Below are positions 1-6,888 of a DNA stretch of 6,930 bases, piece by piece. Below the pieces are notes generated by a model. It searched no databases and had not been told where the DNA came from. It was given only the letters and a program-made list of their open reading frames with translations. The position numbers were made by a program, and so were the translations under genes. Source of the stretch: a virus. Lineage: Duplodnaviria; Heunggongvirae; Uroviricota; Caudoviricetes. Within the stretch, counting starts at the first letter, position 1, and each line of letters starts with the position of its first letter. The stretch lies in the IMG/VR virus record IMGVR_UViG_2778261572_000009, positions 1 through 6,930 of that record; one strand, 5' to 3'.

Positions 1-90
<90 letters not shown>

Positions 91-136
91 CTGTCATCGG
101 TTTCAGGCTAAATGAATCTGCCTTTTTCCGAAATCA

Positions 137-1099
137 TTAATACAGTTTTTTCGCGCAGTCCAGCCAGTCGCCTTTGAACGGACGCTTCATGTTTTCGATA
201 GCGTCGATGATGTCGTGGTGAACCAACTGTTCGTTCTGGATACCTACGCAACGACCGCCGTAACCTGCCAGCAGCAGATCGATAGCGTAAGCGCCCATAC
301 GGGAAGCCAGAATACGGTCGTAAGGCACCGGAGAACCACCGCGCTGGATGTGGCCCAGCACAGTTGCGCGGGTTTCACGACCGGTTTCTTTCTCGATGAA
401 ATGCGCCAGTTCGTCAACATCACACATATGTTCGGTAATCGCCACGATCGCGTGTTTTTTACCTTTCGCGATACCCGCTTTGATTTCATTTACCAGGTCT
501 TCACGGCTGAATTCAACTTCCGGAACCACAACGAATTCACAGCCACCGGCAATGGCCGCAGCCAGCGTCAGATCGCCACAATAACGGCCCATCACTTCCA
601 CCACGGAAATACGCTGGTGAGAAGAAGAGGTGTCACGCAGACGGTCGATCGCTTCTACAACGGTGCTCAGCGCAGTGAAGAAACCGATAGTGTAGTCAGT
701 GCCTTTGATGTCGTTGTCGATAGTGCCCGGCAGACCGATGCACGGGAAGCCCATTTCGGTCAGACGCATTGCACCCATGTAGGAACCGTCACCGCCGATA
801 ACCACCAGCGCGTCGATACCACGTTTTTTCAGGTTTTCGATAGCCACGGCGCGGATGTTCTCGTCGCGGAATTCCGGGAAGCGCGCAGAACCGAGGAACG
901 TACCGCCACGGTTGATCATGTCAGAAACGCTGTAACGGTCTAGCTGTACCATACGGTCTTCATACAGACCCAGATAGCCGTCATAAATGCCCATTACTTC
1001 CAGACCTTCTGTCAGCGCAGAACGAACAACCCCGCGAATTGCGGCGTTCATGCCTGGCGCATCACCGCCGCTTGTCAACACACCGATTTTCTTAATCAT
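137..1099 (-). CDS. pfkA: ATP-dependent 6-phosphofructokinase I
   Basis: The 352-aa minus-strand ORF contains the E. coli PfkA sequence from [23 protein letters not shown] to the C-terminal [13 protein letters not shown] place the start at the internal ATG (complement of 1097-1099), which gives 320 aa and is preceded by GAGG (revcomp of 1104-1107). The 32 codons upstream in the ORF track are an artefactual extension. Stop TAA at 137-139. Confidence 0.95.
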
Positions 1100-1185
1100 G
1101 ACTACCTCTGAACTTTGGAATGCAAAATAAAATCTGTTGCCGGAAGTCTTCTTGCACATCGAAGTGATCCAACGAATGTGCAAAT

Positions 1186-1214
1186 AGTATAACAATCACT
1201 TCCTGCTGAATTGA
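1186..1214 (-). promoter_or_regulatory. Candidate sigma70 promoter for pfkA (-10 TATACT, weak -35 TCAATT)
   Basis: On the minus strand, TATACT (complement of 1186-1191) with a possible -35 TCAATT (complement of 1209-1214) at 17-bp spacing. The -35 overlaps the Cra-like box. Hexamer match only. Confidence 0.3.
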
Positions 1215-1220
1215 TTCAGG
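1205..1220. promoter_or_regulatory. Candidate Cra (FruR) operator in the pfkA upstream region
   Basis: GCTGAATTGATTCAGG is an imperfect palindrome (TGAATT|GATTCA) resembling the Cra half-site consensus TGAAWC. It lies about 105-120 bp upstream of the pfkA ATG; pfkA is a known Cra-repressed gene. Confidence 0.5.
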
Positions 1221-1279
1221 TCAGGCCAAATGGCGGTATTTTATACACAAAATGCGGGTCTGGCTCTCTTTTATACTGA

Positions 1280-2182
1280 TTATGAAAGCATAGACCGTTT
1301 ACCCTCCCTGGGTACGACGGAACAGGGGTCCTGATGGATAATTACATCCGATCCCGGAAAACGCCGTAAAATAGCCTGCTCTACCTGATCCGCCACCATA
1401 TGTGCCTGAACCAAAGGCAGAGAGTCTTCCATTTCCAAATGAATCTGAATAAAGCGGGTCGGCCCTGACTGCCGCGTGCGAAGATCGTGAGCGCCGCTAA
1501 CACCCGGCCAGGAAGTCACGATATCAATAATTTCTTGCCGTTCCTCATCAGGCAATGCGCGATCCAGTAATGACTGTACCGCCTCATATCCCATGCGTAA
1601 CGCGCTATATAAAATATAGATGCCGATTCCCAATGCAAACAGAGCATCGGCGCGATGCCAGCCGTACCAGGACAACCCCAGCGCCAGCAGAATTGCGCCG
1701 TTCATCATAACATCAGACTGGTAATGTAGCATATCAGCCCGCACCGCCTGGCTTTGCGTCCGGCGCACCACCCAACGCTGAAACGAGACAAGGATAATCG
1801 TACAAATTAGCGCCACAATTGTCACGATAACCCCGACGCCTGGATCTGTCATCGGTGTTGGAGATATCAGATGTTGAATACCCGTCAAAAACAGGAATAG
1901 TGCCGAACCGGAGATAAACATACTTTGCGCCAGCGCCGCGAGGGACTCTGCTTTACCGTGACCAAACGAGTGATTATCGTCGGCAGGTTGCAGGGAATAT
2001 CGCACCACCAGTAAATTCGTCAACGACGCGCCGATATCCACCAGCGAATCCACCAGCGCGGCGAGAATACTCACCGACCCGGTATACCACCATGCAAAAA
2101 TTTTAATCAGCAATAGCAACGAAGCCATCGCCGTCGCAGCAATCGCCGCCCGACTGACCAGCCGTCCATAAGATTGATTCAT
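1280..2182 (-). CDS. fieF: Cation diffusion facilitator family metal (Fe2+/Zn2+) efflux pump FieF/YiiP
   Basis: Translation from [25 protein letters not shown] to [10 protein letters not shown] matches FieF (YiiP), 300 aa, with the hydrophobic TM segments and HSFGHGKAE motif typical of CDF transporters. Start is ATG at complement 2180-2182, preceded by GGGAG. The ORF-track start at 2200 is a TTG-initiated extension. The fieF-pfkA adjacency matches E. coli gene order. Confidence 0.93.
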
Positions 2183-2263
2183 AAATACTCCCGCTATCAA
2201 CTGACGCTAGTATAACGGAAGCAAATCATCTGCAATGCATTAAGCAGCAGGCAAATTGAGGAT

Positions 2264-2290
2264 AAAAAAAACCCCCACATCATGTGGGGG
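2264..2290 (-). terminator. Rho-independent terminator candidate upstream of fieF
   Basis: Stem CCCCCAC (2272-2278) / GTGGGGG (2284-2290) with a 5-nt loop. On the plus strand it is preceded by A8 (2264-2271), so on the minus strand it is a GC-rich hairpin followed by U8. Confidence 0.55.
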
Positions 2291-2328
2291 AAGACAGGGA
2301 TGGTGTCACAAAAAAGCACCTAACCTGA

Positions 2329-2350
2329 TGATATAAATGGATTTATATCA
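2329..2350. repeat. Perfect AT-rich palindrome (10-bp arms, 2-bp spacer) in the prophage/chromosome junction region
   Basis: TGATATAAAT (2329-2338), GG, ATTTATATCA (2341-2350); the arms are exact reverse complements. Its nature (protein-binding site or recombination-related) is unknown. Confidence 0.4.
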
Positions 2351-2380
2351 ACCACTGTCCACATAGCGTCCACATCGACC

Positions 2381-2416
2381 ATAAATAAGCCCCTCAACTG
2401 AGGGGCTATTTTTGTG
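2381..2416. terminator. GC-rich hairpin immediately downstream of ogr; candidate ogr terminator, possibly bidirectional, and possibly overlapping the prophage att core
   Basis: Perfect 8-bp inverted repeat AGCCCCTC (2388-2395) / GAGGGGCT (2400-2407) with a 4-nt loop. It is flanked by ATTTTT on the plus strand (2408-2413) and by TATTTAT when read on the minus strand (revcomp of 2381-2387). It starts 11 nt after the ogr stop. Confidence 0.45.
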
Positions 2417-2417
2417 A

Positions 2418-2636
2418 TCACATCCACATAATTTGCTGCCCTGACGGCAACGGGTGCGGCCTCACGGCGTGGACTTCTCCCGGCTTCACGATGTATCTCT
2501 GTACCGACTCATAAGTGATGAACGTGGCGCTGCAATTCACGTTCTGGCACTGGTGATAACGCTCTTTTGTCGTGTCAGTGATATAGCGGCTTGTACGCGC
2601 ATGTGCGGCATGCTGGCATAAAGGACAATGAAACAT
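2418..2636 (-). CDS. ogr: P2-type late gene transcriptional activator Ogr (zinc-finger, Ogr/Delta family)
   Basis: The 72-aa product MFHCPLCQHAAHARTSRYITDTTKERYHQCQNVNCSATFITYESVQRYIVKPGEVHAVRPHPLPSGQQIMWM matches P2 Ogr as I remember it, with the CxxC...CxxxxC zinc-binding arrangement. Start is the internal ATG (complement 2634-2636) preceded by AGAGG; the 21-codon extension in the ORF track is rejected. It lies directly downstream of the gpD-like ORF, as in P2 (D-ogr-att). Confidence 0.85.
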   Translation of the reverse strand: MFHCPLCQHAAHARTSRYITDTTKERYHQCQNVNCSATFITYESVQRYIVKPGEVHAVRPHPLPSGQQIMWM

Positions 2637-2670
2637 CGCGAGCACCTCTTCCGGTTTTGTTGATGGTGCC

Positions 2671-2699
2671 ATTTTAGTTAAATTACCCTTATAAAACAA
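2671..2699 (-). promoter_or_regulatory. Candidate sigma70 promoter for ogr (-35 TTGTTT, 17 bp, -10 TAAAAT)
   Basis: On the minus strand, TTGTTT (complement of 2694-2699) and TAAAAT (complement of 2671-2676) are separated by 17 nt, inside the 81-bp D-ogr intergenic region and about 35 nt upstream of the ogr ATG. Confidence 0.35.
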
Positions 2700-2717
2700 A
2701 TAGATAAATAAAACACA

Positions 2718-4178
2718 TCACTCATCATCTTCTGTTTCGTACTCCACATCAGAAAGCCTGACCTCAAGCTCTAAGGACGTCGTGAAGCCGCTATTATTCA
2801 GAAAATGTGTCACCTTAGTGATTGTCCAGTCCTGCTCGTCTATGACGCGCTTAAAGCCTGACACTTTAACCGGTGTTTCCGTGTAAATATCTGCCCGACC
2901 GGTAGCCAGGCTGATGGAAAACTCCGCGACGCCCCGTTGCAGTTTGTCCCACTTCGCCTGAGCGGCGCGCATGGCCTGCGCTTTCGTGGCATATACCGTG
3001 GTCAGTGCAAAAACGTTGTCAGCCTCACCGGCCATGTATTCACCTTCGCGCGCTTCCGGTACTTTAGGCGCTTTCTTCTGCGTGACTGGTTTCGCTTTCG
3101 GGTGCTCCAGTGCGCGCAGGTGTTTCTCTTTCTTTTTGCGTTTCAGTTTTACCTTCTGCTTTTGCGGCTTCGGGTCTTTGGTGTGTAACCACTTTGCCGT
3201 TACGCCGGTATAGGCTCCACGGTCAGCAATCGCAAAATGATGACGGTCACCGTCGCTGCGGGTGAGGGTAATCTGCGGGATTTTTTTACCGCTGGCAGTC
3301 ACCCCCTGCCCCGCTTTGAGAAACAGCAGTTTTCCCATTTTTACCGACACCTCACCGCCGTTGCGTTCAGCAAGACGGGTCAGGAATTTCGCATCAGACT
3401 CCTGCGACTGGTCGATGTGCGGGATTTTAATTCCGGCCAGTGACGGAGCGACACTGGCTTTCAGCCTGTTACGGGTGGCCACCCCGACATTGGACAGCGT
3501 TTTATGCCAGCCCTGCTCCTGGTCGATTCTGGCACGCAGACCCAGCGCACGGGCGGTGGCATACGCGGTGGCGGTGGTGCTGGTGACCGTATCCCATGCG
3601 AGGAAATCCGGCCAGATGACCATCAGCTCACGCTGGCTGAAATTCTGGCGGTAGGCTTTCACCTCGGAAATGGTCTTACAGCCCCATGCGCTGATATACC
3701 CGAAAGCGCGCAGCTTCTGACAGACGGATACCAGTGCAACAGCCACCTCTTTGGTGTCCAGTCCCGGCACACCGAGAATACGCGGTTTAACACCGGTTAC
3801 CGACTCCGCCGCCAGCAGGGCTTTCAGTCCGGTGTACTGACCGTTTTCGTCGGTGGTGCCGATGATATTGGAAACGGTCTGCGCAAGTTTCGTTTCCTCG
3901 TCGTCGCCGGTGCCGTCTTCCACACGCACGACAACGGTGACCGGTTTTGACTGGTCGGCGATGGCCTGCAACGATGCCGCCAGCGTGCCTTTTTTACCGG
4001 CCTTTGCAATTGCGCTCTGCACATTGGTAATCAGCACTGGTTTATTGAGGGGGAAGATTTCCGCATCCGCATCGCTGGCCGTGCAGACCATGCCAACAAT
4101 GGCGGTGGATACGGTGGAAATGACGCGGGTGCCGTCGTTAATCTCCAGCACCTGCACGCCGTGATGATAGTCACTCAT
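2718..4178 (-). CDS. Chimeric ORF: N-terminal ~233 aa of P2-like tail sheath protein (gpFI) fused in frame to C-terminal ~250 aa of P2-like tail protein D (gpD); deletion remnant, probably non-functional
   Basis: Residues 1-233 (MSDYHHGVQVLEINDGTRVISTVSTAIVGM ... GWHKTLSNVGV) match the N-terminus of P2-family tail sheath proteins from memory. From about residue 234 (ATRNRLKASVAPSLAGIKIPHIDQSQESDAKFLTRLAERNGG ... VRLSDVEYETEDDE) the sequence matches the C-terminal part of P2 gpD. The RBS GGAG (revcomp of 4187-4190) lies 8 nt upstream of the ATG at 4176-4178. The ORF is intact, but the FI C-terminus, FII, E/E', T, U and the D N-terminus expected between these halves are absent. Confidence 0.8.
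   Translation of the reverse strand: MSDYHHGVQVLEINDGTRVISTVSTAIVGMVCTASDADAEIFPLNKPVLITNVQSAIAKAGKKGTLAASLQAIADQSKPVTVVVRVEDGTGDDEETKLAQTVSNIIGTTDENGQYTGLKALLAAESVTGVKPRILGVPGLDTKEVAVALVSVCQKLRAFGYISAWGCKTISEVKAYRQNFSQRELMVIWPDFLAWDTVTSTTATAYATARALGLRARIDQEQGWHKTLSNVGVATRNRLKASVAPSLAGIKIPHIDQSQESDAKFLTRLAERNGGEVSVKMGKLLFLKAGQGVTASGKKIPQITLTRSDGDRHHFAIADRGAYTGVTAKWLHTKDPKPQKQKVKLKRKKKEKHLRALEHPKAKPVTQKKAPKVPEAREGEYMAGEADNVFALTTVYATKAQAMRAAQAKWDKLQRGVAEFSISLATGRADIYTETPVKVSGFKRVIDEQDWTITKVTHFLNNSGFTTSLELEVRLSDVEYETEDDE
3470..3490 (-). other. Deletion junction inside the FI::D fusion ORF (novel joint between sheath and gpD coding sequence)
   Basis: The sheath-like sequence ends at codon 233 (GTG, complement of 3480-3482) and the gpD-like sequence begins at codon 234 (GCC, complement of 3477-3479). 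The exact breakpoint cannot be fixed without the parental sequences. Confidence 0.6.
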
Positions 4179-4270
4179 CCGTTTAACTCCGTGGTTAATG
4201 GGTGCAACTATTTTCTGTTGGGCAGTGCATGAGACGCTATTTGACCTGGCTGGTCAGTGGATGAAACAAC

Positions 4271-4305
4271 AGATAAAGAAAAGGCAGGCAATTCGCCCGC
4301 CTGTC
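4271..4305 (-). terminator. Weak terminator-like hairpin plus T-rich tract between the orphan ORF and the FI::D ORF
   Basis: On the minus strand, GACAGGC-GGGCGAATT-GCCTGCC (revcomp of 4283-4305; 6 of 7 stem positions pair) is followed by TTTTCTTTATCT (revcomp of 4271-4282). Confidence 0.3.
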
Positions 4306-4497
4306 CTGATTTGTACTCACTCATTTTCCGACTGACAATTTACATAGCCAAAACGCTATCAAATCTGACAGTCTGCTTTGAGCGAGGAGCAGAGGTTAGT
4401 TTTAGTTAACCAAAATGATAAAAAGCAGTAGAAAAATCCGCTCATTACGTTATGGTTATAAGCCGCACATAATCATCCGAGCCAAATCCTCTTGATT

Positions 4498-5397
4498 TCA
4501 AAGAATTAGCACTTGCTCTTCACTAGAAACTATGGTTCTGACTTCACGCTCAAATATTGGATCCATTATCATTTTTCTATTTGTTGGAATAGTAAATTTA
4601 CCGAGTACCATGACAATGCTACTCAACGGAAATAATTTTGGAGTAACATTTCCTAATTGAATCGTAGGATATATATTAAAGCCCCCTTTTATCCTCATTG
4701 GCGAACCTTCAATGAAGTGTCGATAATTAAATTTCGCCATAGGGATTCTCGCCACATGCACTTTCATAATTACAGCAACCTGAGCTATTTTTACTTTCTG
4801 GAGGTAAGTTGACAATCGTTCTAACTGCGTTGTTTCATAGAAAAAATCAGACCACGTTACAGTACTTGTTCCAGTAACAATTTTTATGCTGTTTCTCTTG
4901 TTGGGGTGAGCTTTTCCATATTCATAGATCTCCCGTAAGCTATCCATGTTCTTCACATAAGGGGCTTTCCGACCTCTCTTGACATAAACGCGGTCTGTAG
5001 TATCAGAAGGTGGATTTGCCTGCATAGCTGCAGCTTTTCTGCTTAATTTAGAGATATCATCTTCATCGAGTATATGTATACGGAATATATTATTACCTGT
5101 GGCAAGCGCACGGCTGATATCATGACTGGAATCACTTGCATAAATTGTATTCAATCCTGAAGTTCCATACTGGCATAATTTGTCATGCGTGAAATTTTTT
5201 TCCAGTCTAAAGAAGGCGGGGATATGCAAGGTTTTATTAAAACTCCGACGAATATGGCTTTTGACATACACCAAATGAGCAGAGCAATTTGGGTCAGGAC
5301 ATTTGAGTGGATAGGGATTAACACTATAATTAAAAGTATTTACATTTACTAAAATCTGATTGTTATCAATAGCCTGAGTTATACGAATACCACTCAT
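4498..5397 (-). CDS. Hypothetical protein, 299 aa, AT-rich cargo gene in the prophage G-FI (Z/fun) variable slot; function unknown, candidate defence or lysogenic-conversion factor
   Basis: A 900-bp uninterrupted ORF with ATG at complement 5395-5397 preceded by GGAGGAG (revcomp of 5401-5407) at good spacing. Hand-counted GC is about 30-38% on sample lines, versus about 70% in the adjacent sheath/D ORF. It is flanked by 215-bp and 319-bp spacers with no convincing ORFs. I recognise no protein family in it. Confidence 0.75.
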   Translation of the reverse strand: MSGIRITQAIDNNQILVNVNTFNYSVNPYPLKCPDPNCSAHLVYVKSHIRRSFNKTLHIPAFFRLEKNFTHDKLCQYGTSGLNTIYASDSSHDISRALATGNNIFRIHILDEDDISKLSRKAAAMQANPPSDTTDRVYVKRGRKAPYVKNMDSLREIYEYGKAHPNKRNSIKIVTGTSTVTWSDFFYETTQLERLSTYLQKVKIAQVAVIMKVHVARIPMAKFNYRHFIEGSPMRIKGGFNIYPTIQLGNVTPKLFPLSSIVMVLGKFTIPTNRKMIMDPIFEREVRTIVSSEEQVLIL

Positions 5398-5536
5398 TAC
5401 TCCTCCATAAAGATAGGCGCAAGCATTTAGTAATAAACCATTAACATGCCGAGATCATACCCGATCATTGAAATGTAAACACTCCCCTAAGACGGCTGCT
5501 GGCATAATATTTTATGACATCAGCAATGCCCACCTC

Positions 5537-5578
5537 TGGCACAGAGTGGACTGTCAGATTAGGCTTTACTCTGTGCCA
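5537..5578. repeat. 11-bp perfect inverted repeat with 20-nt spacer between gene G and the orphan ORF
   Basis: TGGCACAGAGT (5537-5547) / ACTCTGTGCCA (5568-5578). It lies 35 nt downstream of the G stop and about 140 nt upstream of the orphan ORF start on the minus strand. No adjacent U-tract. Confidence 0.4.
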
Positions 5579-5612
5579 TAGATATGTAAGCCCACACTAG
5601 AGCTCATACAAC

Positions 5613-6140
5613 TTATTGCGGCATTTCCGGCCATTCAGGATTTGCAGGATCCACACGACTGACCAGAACACTATAGCGTTCCCATGCCTCCAGTCGACTA
5701 CGCTCCTCATCTGTTGCCATATTCAGCCTGACCGCGCGCTCCAGCGGCAAAATCACGGATTCAGCTTCGGAAAGCAAAGCTGCCTTATGTAATTCCGCCA
5801 GTTTCTGCTGTTCGTCTGCCGTATAAATCCGCTTAATCACGGCACCATCCTTAAACATCCATTTACCTGAGTCGTCAGCACGTCGGTTGGAGGTAATATC
5901 AGGAACCTCAACAACGCTAAAACCTTCAGGATTAAGCGTTGAAGCATCTCTGGTGATAGCGACAATAATATTATTTTCATCGTAAACAATCTTTATTGTG
6001 TCTGGCTGAAAGTTCTTCACTTCCTCATACCAGTTTTTTCCGTCCTCAGAGTAAAGCCAGATAACTCCGTGTTTCTTTGTTAACTCATACTGTTCCAGTG
6101 TTTTAGCGTTACCCGCTTTTATGTTCTTTAAGTGCATCAT
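5613..6140 (-). CDS. G: Tail fibre assembly protein (P2 gpG-like Tfa chaperone)
   Basis: The 175-aa product begins [23 protein letters not shown]...[20 protein letters not shown]...[34 protein letters not shown], matching the conserved N-terminal domain of P2 gpG tail-fibre assembly proteins. Its start lies 1 nt after the TAA of the upstream tail-fibre ORF, the usual fibre-chaperone coupling. Confidence 0.85.
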
Positions 6141-6141
6141 A

Positions 6142-6888
6142 TTAAACGCTCGCTACATTATACCAGGTGCCATTTATATACTTTTGAACGGGTCTGTAAT
6201 AAACGCCCGCTATATTATCGGCAGAGTTGGACCCTGTATCCTGAACATTAATACCAGACAATACATGACCTGACGGGCACTGGAAATTCCATGTTTGCCA
6301 GTTGTTCACTCCATAATATTGCTGTGACCCAAGTCGAACATCTTTCACATATCTGGAATCAAAATTGCCATAGTTGCCAGGAATAACTTGCGAGCCACAA
6401 AGCCAGTTACCGTTATTATCCATGTACGCCTGACCATCGGTGCCATTGGCTGTCCTTGAGTTATTAATCATGTAGATGCCAAATTGCTTGTTCCCCAGTC
6501 CACCTATCATGAACTTGCGGTCAGCGTGATTCTGGCGAAGCAACGCCTGAGCGCTATCAGTGTTAACTATATTTTTCCCAAAGATAGCGTTGTTATCGCG
6601 CATCTGAATCCACATACCATTACTGCTGTTAATAGCAAAACGGTCTGAAAGCGTCTCCCCTGAAACATTAAGGCCACGCCCCATCGAAACAGCGCCAGTA
6701 GCGTTATTAATCCATAATGGCCTTAATCCGTTATAAGTCCCCATGTTGTCACCGGAGTTTGTCAACATGAAGTATGTATTTGAACCATCATTACGAATAA
6801 AGAATCCGTAATTACCATAAGCAATACGTAGGCCGTTTGCTGATTTTGATATGACTTCGCCATTTACAATGGCATTGCGTATTTTCAT
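6142..6888 (-). CDS. Tail fibre protein, C-terminal receptor-binding module (gpH-like distal part), encoded as a separate 248-aa ORF
   Basis: The translation contains motifs I associate with distal tail-fibre domains ([18 protein letters not shown]...[17 protein letters not shown]) and sits immediately upstream of the cognate assembly gene G. The first ATG (complement 6886-6888) is preceded 4 codons upstream by an in-frame TGA and has only a weak Shine-Dalgarno sequence. Confidence 0.7.

Follow-up and report, generated by a model that had tools for sequence, protein, structure and literature searches.

The 6,930-bp window analysed here, which is the whole of a draft contig from one E. coli isolate (GCA_002229415.1), very probably contains part of a defective prophage in which a spontaneous deletion of 4,842 bp has fused the tail sheath gene FI to the baseplate-hub gene D and in which the tail-fibre gene H is cut by the insertion sequence ISEc12. 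The fusion is a case of ordinary prophage decay and not special.

As judged from its sequence, the window covers that end of a P2-like (Peduovirus) prophage which adjoins fieF, the element being integrated at the fieF/cpxP attachment site. The host genes pfkA (137..1099; 6-phosphofructokinase) and fieF (1280..2182; a cation-efflux transporter flanking the prophage) are ORFs that are annotated as such in two collinear loci, L001 and L019, and like all genes and signals of the window described below they lie on the minus strand. Phage homology starts at 2261 with a 47-nt att core (attR, 2261..2307), and the same 47 nt are repeated with 100% identity at the opposite end of the intact E. coli 14EC020 prophage, between int and cpxP (L019, 37846..37892). 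The contig itself covers this repeat at the right end only, the int-proximal end falling beyond it. Apart from the deletion, the order ogr-D-...-FI-(cargo)-G-H and a nucleotide identity of 97–99.8% to P2-like references identify the element as P2-like. Insertion sequence ends are found at both contig borders. The left one (1..53, downstream of pfkA) belongs to an IS110-family element and is missing at the pfkA flank in other E. coli, where the alignments begin at 54. This stretch is present in multiple copies (12,990 places in 2,233 genomes), one of which, in strain E2863, adjoins an IS110-family transposase pseudogene.

The fused ORF (2718..4178) encodes 486 amino acids and consists of FI codons 1–233 (3480..4178; FI nt 1–699, 99.1% nucleotide identity) followed in frame by D codons 135–387 plus the stop codon (2718..3479; D nt 403–1164, 96.9% nucleotide identity). 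A preliminary description of this DNA had proposed a fusion of tail sheath and gpD with a joint near 3479/3480, and Pfam, BLASTP and blastn bear this out to the base. When the two parts were submitted to BLASTP separately, as had been suggested there, residues 1–233 matched residues 1–233 of FI of phage NC_070904.1 with 232 of 233 positions identical, and residues 234–486 matched D residues 135–387 of the same phage with six mismatches. Both megablast and blastn switch from D to FI exactly at 3479|3480. On the N-terminal side Pfam recognizes Gp18_domIII_N (residues 26–86) and Phage_sheath_1 (residues 113–237; profile positions 1–130 of 168), on the C-terminal side Phage_GPD (residues 234–463; profile positions 105–304 of 305). 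Neither half is a complete protein: the fused ORF has no match to Phage_sheath_1C (PF17482), a domain carried by intact FI relatives, and the match to Phage_GPD (PF05954) is partial in that D residues 1–134 are absent. The database label of the protein (WP_089653473.1) reads "phage tail sheath subtilisin-like domain-containing protein". An in-frame joint alone would be expected by chance in one of three cases; with each half nearly identical to a known gene, however, the joint is not a chance pattern.

The deletion was measured against two intact references: one is the Peduovirus phage NC_070904.1, the other the prophage that E. coli 14EC020 (NZ_CP024138.1) carries at fieF/cpxP. They share with the window the gene order, the attachment site and a 299-aa cargo ORF, and differ from it in having the 4,842 bp that are absent here and in lacking ISEc12 in H. 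Positions 3480..6877 are 99.8% and positions 2261..3479 (ogr to the D fragment) 97.1% identical to NC_070904.1, and the arm from the flank to the D fragment is 98.3% identical to 14EC020. The prophage of the latter strain is arranged ogrK-D-U-T-E'-E-FII-FI-orf299-G-H...int-cpxP, and the window is collinear with it except for the 4,842 bp missing between the two phage-matching segments, which comprise FI codons 234–396, FII, E/E', T, U and D codons 1–134. The alignment to intact P2-like elements for which the preliminary description had called thus places both endpoints, and its list of deleted genes (FII, E/E', T and U) agrees with both references. Its further statement that none of these genes is present holds for the 6.9-kb contig, where a tblastn search using the complete set of late proteins from the intact phage returned no match for FII, E, T or U; it does not extend beyond the contig, where a second P2-like prophage might complement them.

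We propose that FI nt 699 and D nt 403 were brought together in a single event of illegitimate (homology-independent) recombination. This event would have removed the C-terminal domain of the sheath, the FII tube, the E/E' chaperones, the T tape measure, U and D codons 1–134, and the joint would have fallen in frame by accident, leaving the 486-aa ORF behind the sheath ribosome-binding site. Alignment of both parental sites revealed 0 nt of microhomology at 3479|3480. A palindrome of 12 nt arises at the joint; it requires the Thr136 allele of D, which is found in intact D genes, and may be a coincidence.

Since the window is a short contig of a short-read draft, the junction rests on assemblies. 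One therefore has to consider an assembly artefact, that is, a chimeric contig wrongly joining D and FI of one intact or of two prophages. The small size of the contig, the IS repeats at both of its ends and the rarity of the junction would fit such an origin: the junction is found in one NCBI assembly (GCA_002229415.1) and one Logan assembly (SRR3989759), is missing from all 5,426 complete E. coli genomes searched, and its 36-mer is absent from metagenome, IMG/VR and GTDB-representative collections. However, the NCBI and Logan assemblies agree base for base over the joint and are 100% identical over positions 2278..6905 of the window. Moreover, graph assemblers mis-join through shared k-mers only and the two sides have no common sequence at the joint, and closed genomes as well as a 5-Mb contig contain deletions of the same kind. 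We consider an artefact very unlikely.

The second lesion lies in H, which is cut at 6877|6878. Homology to H stops at 6877, so that a 3' fragment encoding residues 428–673 of 673 is left (6142..6877), with an in-frame stop upstream; the remaining 53 nt up to the right contig border (6878..6930) are the left terminus of ISEc12 (IS21 family). Chromosomes and plasmids contain this 53-mer at 5,050 places, and in strain M217 it is located about 140 bp upstream of the ISEc12 gene istA. By contrast, ogr (2418..2636), encoding a zinc-finger activator of P2 late promoters (Pfam Ogr_Delta, E=2e-21), and G (5613..6140), encoding a tail-fibre assembly protein (Pfam Caudo_TAP), are intact and identical to NC_070904.1 in 72 of 72 and 175 of 175 residues, respectively. 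The view that ogr, G, the orphan cargo gene and the fibre module had all escaped damage therefore needs amendment: it is correct for the first three, whose products match their counterparts in the intact phage at 100% identity, and incorrect for the fibre module. The conclusion that the prophage is defective was not only upheld but strengthened, since H is cut as well. With FII, E, T and U unmatched, FI and D truncated and H interrupted, the element falls short of a functional prophage, and on its sequence this copy is unable to build tails by itself because of the tail-gene deletion together with the ISEc12 cut in H. The complete identity of ogr, G and the 299-aa ORF to the intact phage suggests that both damage events are recent.

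Transcription and translation signals of the sheath gene appear to have survived. Within 4179..4270 is the ribosome-binding site of the sheath gene (GGAG, 4187..4190), which precedes the ATG of the fused ORF by 8 nt, and the whole region falls inside the 99.8% match to the intact phage; retention of this site, of the upstream region and of the reading frame is thus as previously stated. The sheath operon is transcribed from an Ogr-dependent late promoter (PMC3931495). An exact TGT-N12-ACA motif is absent upstream of the truncated FI, the best candidate being a match in five of six positions (4251..4268), and such five-of-six matches are no commoner than in shuffled sequences. As the motif match does not exceed chance, assignment of a PF promoter to this region rests on identity to the intact phage, which points to a presumed, Ogr-dependent function. 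A terminator-like hairpin follows the cargo ORF at 4282..4302. It is possible, then, that the 486-aa chimeric protein is made. The predicted product lacks the C-terminal domain of the sheath and the N-terminal third of the hub and, for this reason, is probably a non-functional by-product.

The ORF being open, its ribosome-binding site and upstream region being kept, an intact ogr being adjacent and in-frame FI::D fusions being recurrent, one may ask whether the chimera has been selected for a function, for instance as an Ogr-induced dominant-negative decoy against P2-like phages or P4 satellites (superinfection exclusion). Its distribution argues against this. The full-length protein does not belong to a single natural family, an outcome that the preliminary description had named as counting against a fusion; among about 15 billion proteins it stands alone in its cluster at 90% identity. 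The joint differs in the roughly 20 other FI::D proteins, nearly every one of which is likewise a singleton, as expected of neutral accidents of which one-third fall in frame. The 486-aa protein was accordingly not assigned to a natural family of sheath-hub fusions, in which many proteins would share one architecture and one joint. More generally, P2-like prophages contain more than 30 independent in-frame fusions created by tail-gene deletions, nearly all of them singletons. Finally, the common form at the fieF locus is an out-of-frame equivalent (L001, see below). A selected function of the chimera is therefore highly improbable, even more so than an assembly artefact.

Degraded remnants comparable to the spontaneous deletion proposed here are found at two chromosomal sites. 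At the fieF locus, 69 complete genomes cover at least 80% of the window. Like the window, this remnant (e.g. NIPH17_0036, L001) combines the same locus with ogrK, orf299, G and a truncated sheath gene beside the end of D. Unlike the window, L001 has FI nt 1–817 joined to D nt 1127–1164 with 8 nt of microhomology, the two parts are not in the same frame, the annotation lists a pseudogene, and V and the portal gene are partial. This structure was derived from one genome, and the best 30 of the 69 show the same two-piece match. By sequence, the deletions of L001 and of the window are independent, neither being derivable from the other. At the yegQ locus, strain S3 likewise contains an ogr-proximal P2-like remnant with a deletion extending from the sheath gene towards D; it represents an intermediate form of the cryptic remnant at this locus and differs from the window in its chromosomal site, in the completeness of D and in its joint, which connects FI nt 756 with U nt 360. 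The yegQ-locus remnant of E. coli K-12 presumably consists of ogrK and a D fragment, yegZ. The two halves of the fusion also align with components of R-type pyocins, residues 4–231 with residues 3–224 of 386 of the sheath PA0622 (PDB 3j9q) and residues 217–329 with residues 103–215 of 329 of a hub-like protein (6u5h chain C). An R-type tailocin was ruled out: complete sheath, tube, tape-measure and hub genes would be expected, but exactly those tail genes are deleted.

According to a recent survey, defective P2 elements pair pseudogenised mobility genes with nearly unchanged cargo or defence genes and have accessory-gene hotspots inside tail genes, there is no consistently inactivated core gene, and recurrent breakpoints are not described there (NAR 2026, PMC13586616). 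The window differs from these elements in that its cargo ORF is no recognised defence gene. This orphan ORF (4498..5397; 299 aa) is located between G and FI, has a low G+C content (0.35–0.40), is identical in 299 of 299 residues to its counterpart in the intact phage and belongs to a small conserved family. It matches PHROG 7195, a family without functional annotation, and had no match in Pfam or among the PADLOC defence models, and it was accordingly not assigned to a known anti-phage defence system. Its AlphaFold model is poor (pLDDT 51.5, from a 12-sequence alignment), and with this poor model Foldseek returned weak OB-fold-like matches in the PDB (best E = 5e-3).

Comparison of the fusions indicated that their endpoints recur. 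D nt 403 (codon 135) is the right breakpoint for at least six different left partners at at least three chromosomal loci; these partners are FI233 (the window), FI127, V121, T203, gpL, and a site in the early region next to the integrase and a small neighbouring ORF. Three or four partners share FI codon 275, and two each share FI127, FI233, FI251, FI256/257 and FI353, so that the joint of the window uses two recurrent sites, FI 699 and D 403. Coincident endpoint pairs number 11 in FI against 1.9 expected (p about 4e-5) and nine in D against 1.2 expected (p about 8e-5). This sample consists of in-frame events only, most endpoints were inferred at codon level from proteins, and the motifs described below were found post hoc. 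In our proposal, the break on the D side would have been favoured by a local stable hairpin, GAGGC-GATA-GCCTC, with D nt 403 at the boundary between its loop and its 3' arm, a position that is the end point of many independent deletions. A search of metagenome and viral collections with the pattern GGTAGCCWCCCGTAACA for more D403 junctions gave 30 chance matches, none of them with D homology.

Illegitimate recombination mediated by microhomology is indicated as the general process by the raised identity of parental sites just around the junctions (0.45–0.77 versus 0.25). Most other fusions show 2–9 nt of microhomology, unlike the joint of the window. The reuse of D nt 403, FI codon 275 and other sites and the excess of coincident endpoints would also be explained by a sequence-specific process, with a nuclease, a recombinase or hairpin-stalled replication targeting a small set of preferred sites, D nt 403 foremost among them. 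In keeping with this idea, D403 and FI826 each rank among the top 0.5% most stable single-stranded DNA windows of their own gene, and of the six GGTRANCG sites that occur from V to D, four serve as left breakpoints (the motif is carried by FI nt 826, 381 and 699 and by V nt 363). However, ordinary short microhomology is present at most junctions, folding energies at the remaining reused sites are unremarkable, and the hotspots could simply be the best combinations of microhomology and hairpin among very many prophages. Besides the sampling and post hoc limits mentioned above, no enzyme is tied to the motif: Xer/dif, invertase gix and BstEII-type sites were unconvincing, and so was a scan of the A gene, made with a view to nicking by P2 A protein at pseudo-origins. 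We take a sequence-specific process seriously while judging it improbable on balance.

Several specific candidates were set aside. Slippage on the direct repeat GGTGTTA was dropped because the motif belongs to the deleted side and was lost. For XerCD/dif-like, gix/cix-like invertase and secondary P2 Int att sites, whose consensus sequences were compared with the breakpoint contexts, the breaks are not at the cut positions. BstEII-type GGTNACC sites are absent at D403, and a topoisomerase rule ('C at -4') was post hoc and inconsistent. Common descent of the three fieF-locus D403 variants was rejected since the haplotypes of their D fragments differ beside the joint and their structures are not mutually derivable.

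For annotation, our analysis means that WP_089653473.1 is a two-gene deletion chimera and that the locus is to be treated as a defective prophage that retains ogr together with an uncharacterised cargo gene. Deletion endpoints of prophages are recorded at no extra cost by the in-frame chimeras that protein databases contain, and those of P2-like phages are strongly non-random. Should this hold in a full census, it would provide a tractable system for studying site choice in illegitimate recombination and the fixation of prophages as remnants. More doubtful, and slightly less likely than a sequence-specific process as such, is the tentative proposal that inactivation of P2-like prophages by tail-gene deletion is partly deterministic, with a few short sites being reused at different loci. 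If true, it would imply a defined mechanism of prophage 'grounding', for example hairpin-stalled replication with template switching or, alternatively, a nuclease of phage or host that nicks and rejoins the DNA.

The window corresponds to the whole contig NLMV01000115.1 (6,930 bases) of the E. coli draft assembly GCA_002229415.1, which is bounded at both ends by IS copies or repeats: the end of an IS110-family element at the left (1..53), downstream of pfkA and beside REP-like sequence, and the left terminus of ISEc12 (IS21 family; 6878..6930) at the right. All genes lie on the minus strand, beginning with the host genes pfkA (137..1099) and fieF (1280..2182). A 47-nt segment at 2261..2307 is repeated exactly at the int end of the intact prophage of E. 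coli 14EC020 and thus represents the att core, which places the right end of the prophage here. Within this core, at 2272..2290 of the minus strand, a G+C hairpin precedes a run of T. The prophage genes comprise ogr (2418..2636), the 486-aa ORF (2718..4178), an orphan ORF of 299 aa located between G and FI (4498..5397), the tail-fibre assembly gene G (5613..6140) and the 3' part of the tail-fibre gene H (6142..6877).

The 486-aa protein had been described as a P2-type sheath joined near 3479/3480 to the tail protein gpD, and coordinates, domain split and joint turned out to be exact to the base. Pfam assigns Gp18_domIII_N (residues 26–86) and Phage_sheath_1 (113–237; profile positions 1–130 of 168) to the sheath part, and Phage_GPD (234–463; profile positions 105–304 of 305) to the hub part. 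When the two portions were compared separately with the intact P2-like phage NC_070904.1, both proved near-identical to its proteins: 232 of residues 1–233 match FI 1–233, and residues 234–486 equal D 135–387 apart from six substitutions. DNA identity is 99.8% over 3480..6877 and 97.1% over 2261..3479, with the switch exactly at 3479/3480. Mapping of the endpoints against the 14EC020 prophage (NZ_CP024138.1), which is of the same type and occupies the same site (pfkA-fieF-[ogrK-D-U-T-E'-E-FII-FI-orf299-G-H-I-J-W-V ... int]-cpxP), showed that the window is collinear with it (54..3479, 98.3%; 3480..6877, 99.8%) apart from 4,842 missing bases. These comprise FI codons 234–396, FII, E/E', T, U and D codons 1–134. 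The proposal of a multi-kb, in-frame internal deletion in a defective P2-like prophage was largely right. The reported loss of FII, E/E', T and U likewise holds for this contig, to which the absence applies: with all late proteins of the intact phage as tblastn queries, FII, E, T, U, I, J, W and V found no match in the window.

The joint reads GTCGGGGTG on the FI side and GCCACCCGT on the D side, and alignment to the parental sites revealed no microhomology with either parental continuation. It creates a perfect 12-nt palindrome, GGGTGGCCACCC, at 3471..3482 of the plus strand, centred one base off the junction. Only with the Thr136 allele of D does this palindrome form, and since intact D genes carry that allele too, it may be a coincidence. 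That the joint arose as an assembly artefact is very improbable: the Logan assembly SRR3989759, possibly made from reads of the same isolate, is 100% identical over 2278..6905 including the joint, no k-mer common to both sides could have misled a graph assembler, and deletions of the same kind are carried by closed genomes. The Logan contig terminates at 2278, within the att core at 2261..2307.

A second inactivating lesion is found in H. Homology to this gene stops at 6877 and is followed by an in-frame stop and 53 bases of the ISEc12 terminus, so that only residues 428–673 of 673 are kept in the window. The fibre module, which the preliminary description had considered intact, is thus incomplete, and the prophage is more defective than first described; this defect is read from a contig in which the visible part of the prophage ends in an IS at the contig edge. 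The corresponding claim for ogr, G and the orphan cargo gene was borne out, as their products are identical to those of NC_070904.1 (72/72, 175/175 and 299/299 residues, respectively). Given this identity and the 7 mismatches in the 3,398 bases of the FI'-to-H' arm, both lesions look recent, judged from sequence divergence.

The chimera has kept the sheath RBS (GGAG, 8 nt before the ATG) and an upstream region like that of the intact phage. Ogr-dependent promoters with the consensus TGT-N12-ACA drive the P2 late operons, FI-FII-E-E'-T-U-D among them (PMC3931495); the region upstream of the chimera contains only a 5/6 match (4251..4268), a pattern that does not exceed chance. As the protein lacks both the conserved C-terminal domain of the sheath and the N-terminal third of the hub, we infer a by-product without function. 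In keeping with this, the protein is rare: its 90%-identity cluster has a single member among approximately 15 billion proteins, none of 5,426 complete E. coli genomes carries the joint, and the 36-mer spanning the junction gave no match in metagenome, viral and representative-genome collections. Nothing points to selection on the chimera, which is a rare accident.

With the full chimera as query, a homology search that could have exposed a single natural family yielded no conserved sheath-hub family. It retrieved about 20 FI::D chimeras with other joints and further types (FI::T, FI::FII, T::D, V::D, I::D, J::D, L::D and H::FI), almost all of them singletons. Tail-gene chimeras are a common outcome of prophage decay, a recurrent accident and not a family. 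At 31 joints the identity of the two parental sites right around the break is 0.45–0.77 compared with 0.25 by chance, a sequence signature indicative of microhomology-mediated illegitimate recombination.

Four independent variants occur at the fieF locus alone: the window (FI codon 233 joined to D codon 135), L007 (FI127 to D135), L014, in a 5-Mb contig (V121 to D135), and the L001 type. L001 (NZ_AP024561.1, 10366..21981) stems from a related P2-like prophage and is a separate remnant in a more advanced state of decay: FI nt 1–817 are joined out of frame, via 8 nt of microhomology, to the 38 nt that end D (from nt 1127), and V and the portal gene survive in part. Among complete E. coli genomes, 69 cover 80% or more of the window; the best 30 of the 69 share the two-piece match of L001, whose structure was examined at this one locus. 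In L007 (GCA_029998075.1), too, a P2-like phage occupies the fieF site; immediately upstream of its FI'::'D chimera, at 2348..2941, lie a gene for a resolvase/invertase and a fibre-assembly gene in inverted orientation, which is how an invertible tail-fibre segment is laid out. The yegQ/ogrK locus of strain S3 (L005; NZ_CP010228.1, 6039..12896) carries ogrK, complete D, FI nt 1–756 joined to U nt 360, an IS3 and fibre-gene fragments in scrambled order; it resembles an intermediate form of the cryptic P2 remnant at this locus. In the extreme remnant L018 (Logan SRR29421605_78, 3468..5873), integrase and an adjacent 82-aa ORF are joined directly to D nt 403 (ATCGGTA/GCCTCC); nearly all phage DNA in between is deleted and a 290-aa ORF runs into D'.

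Defective P2 elements with near-intact cargo genes were reported in a recent survey (PMC13586616). The orphan ORF has a G+C fraction of 0.35–0.40, compared with about 0.55 in its neighbours, falls in PHROG 7195 (unknown function), and gave no domain or defence match in Pfam or PADLOC. Its small family (12 clusters, nearly all of 299 aa, 65–100% identical) is conserved in Enterobacterales, five named sources being E. coli, Serratia, Morganella, Leclercia and Proteus, and C33, C38, H58, H71 and C75 are among the invariant residues. The predicted structure is of low quality (pLDDT 51.5) outside residues ~150–270, and these gave only weak OB-fold-like matches. The ORF could be a candidate anti-phage cargo gene.

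Deletion endpoints were compared among joint 3479/3480, loci L007, L009, L010, L011, L014, L016, L017 and L018, and proteins P0017–P0132. D nt 403 (codon 135) is the right endpoint for at least six different left partners (FI233, FI127, V121, T203, gpL, and an early-region site beside integrase and its adjacent small ORF), at a minimum of three chromosomal sites and with differing D haplotypes. The sheath-side end in the window, FI nt 699, is shared within 1–5 nt by an FI::T chimera; FI codon 275 recurs with three to four partners and another five FI sites with two each. In this sample, which consists of in-frame events from a protein database with endpoints mostly inferred at codon level, 11 coincident FI pairs were observed vs 1.9 expected (p about 4e-5) and 9 coincident D pairs vs 1.2 (maximum multiplicity 4; p about 8e-5) under a uniform null. 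Endpoint reuse in independent prophages is far above uniform expectation (p about 1e-4) and hence non-random. D nt 394–407 form a hairpin (GAGGC-GATA-GCCTC) with the break at the boundary between loop and 3' arm, and by ssDNA folding energy the 60-nt stretch around D403 ranks among the top 0.5% within D, as FI nt 826 does within FI; the remaining sites are unremarkable. Motifs recognized post hoc include CG(G/A)T(A/G), with which left partners tend to end and which resembles the CGATA of D itself, and GGTRANCG, which coincides with a breakpoint at four of its six sites between V and D. No enzyme could be tied to the endpoint pattern. In the simplest model, the hairpin would promote stalling, and the template would switch onto imperfect microhomology. 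The non-random reuse of deletion endpoints is the one thing worth following up.
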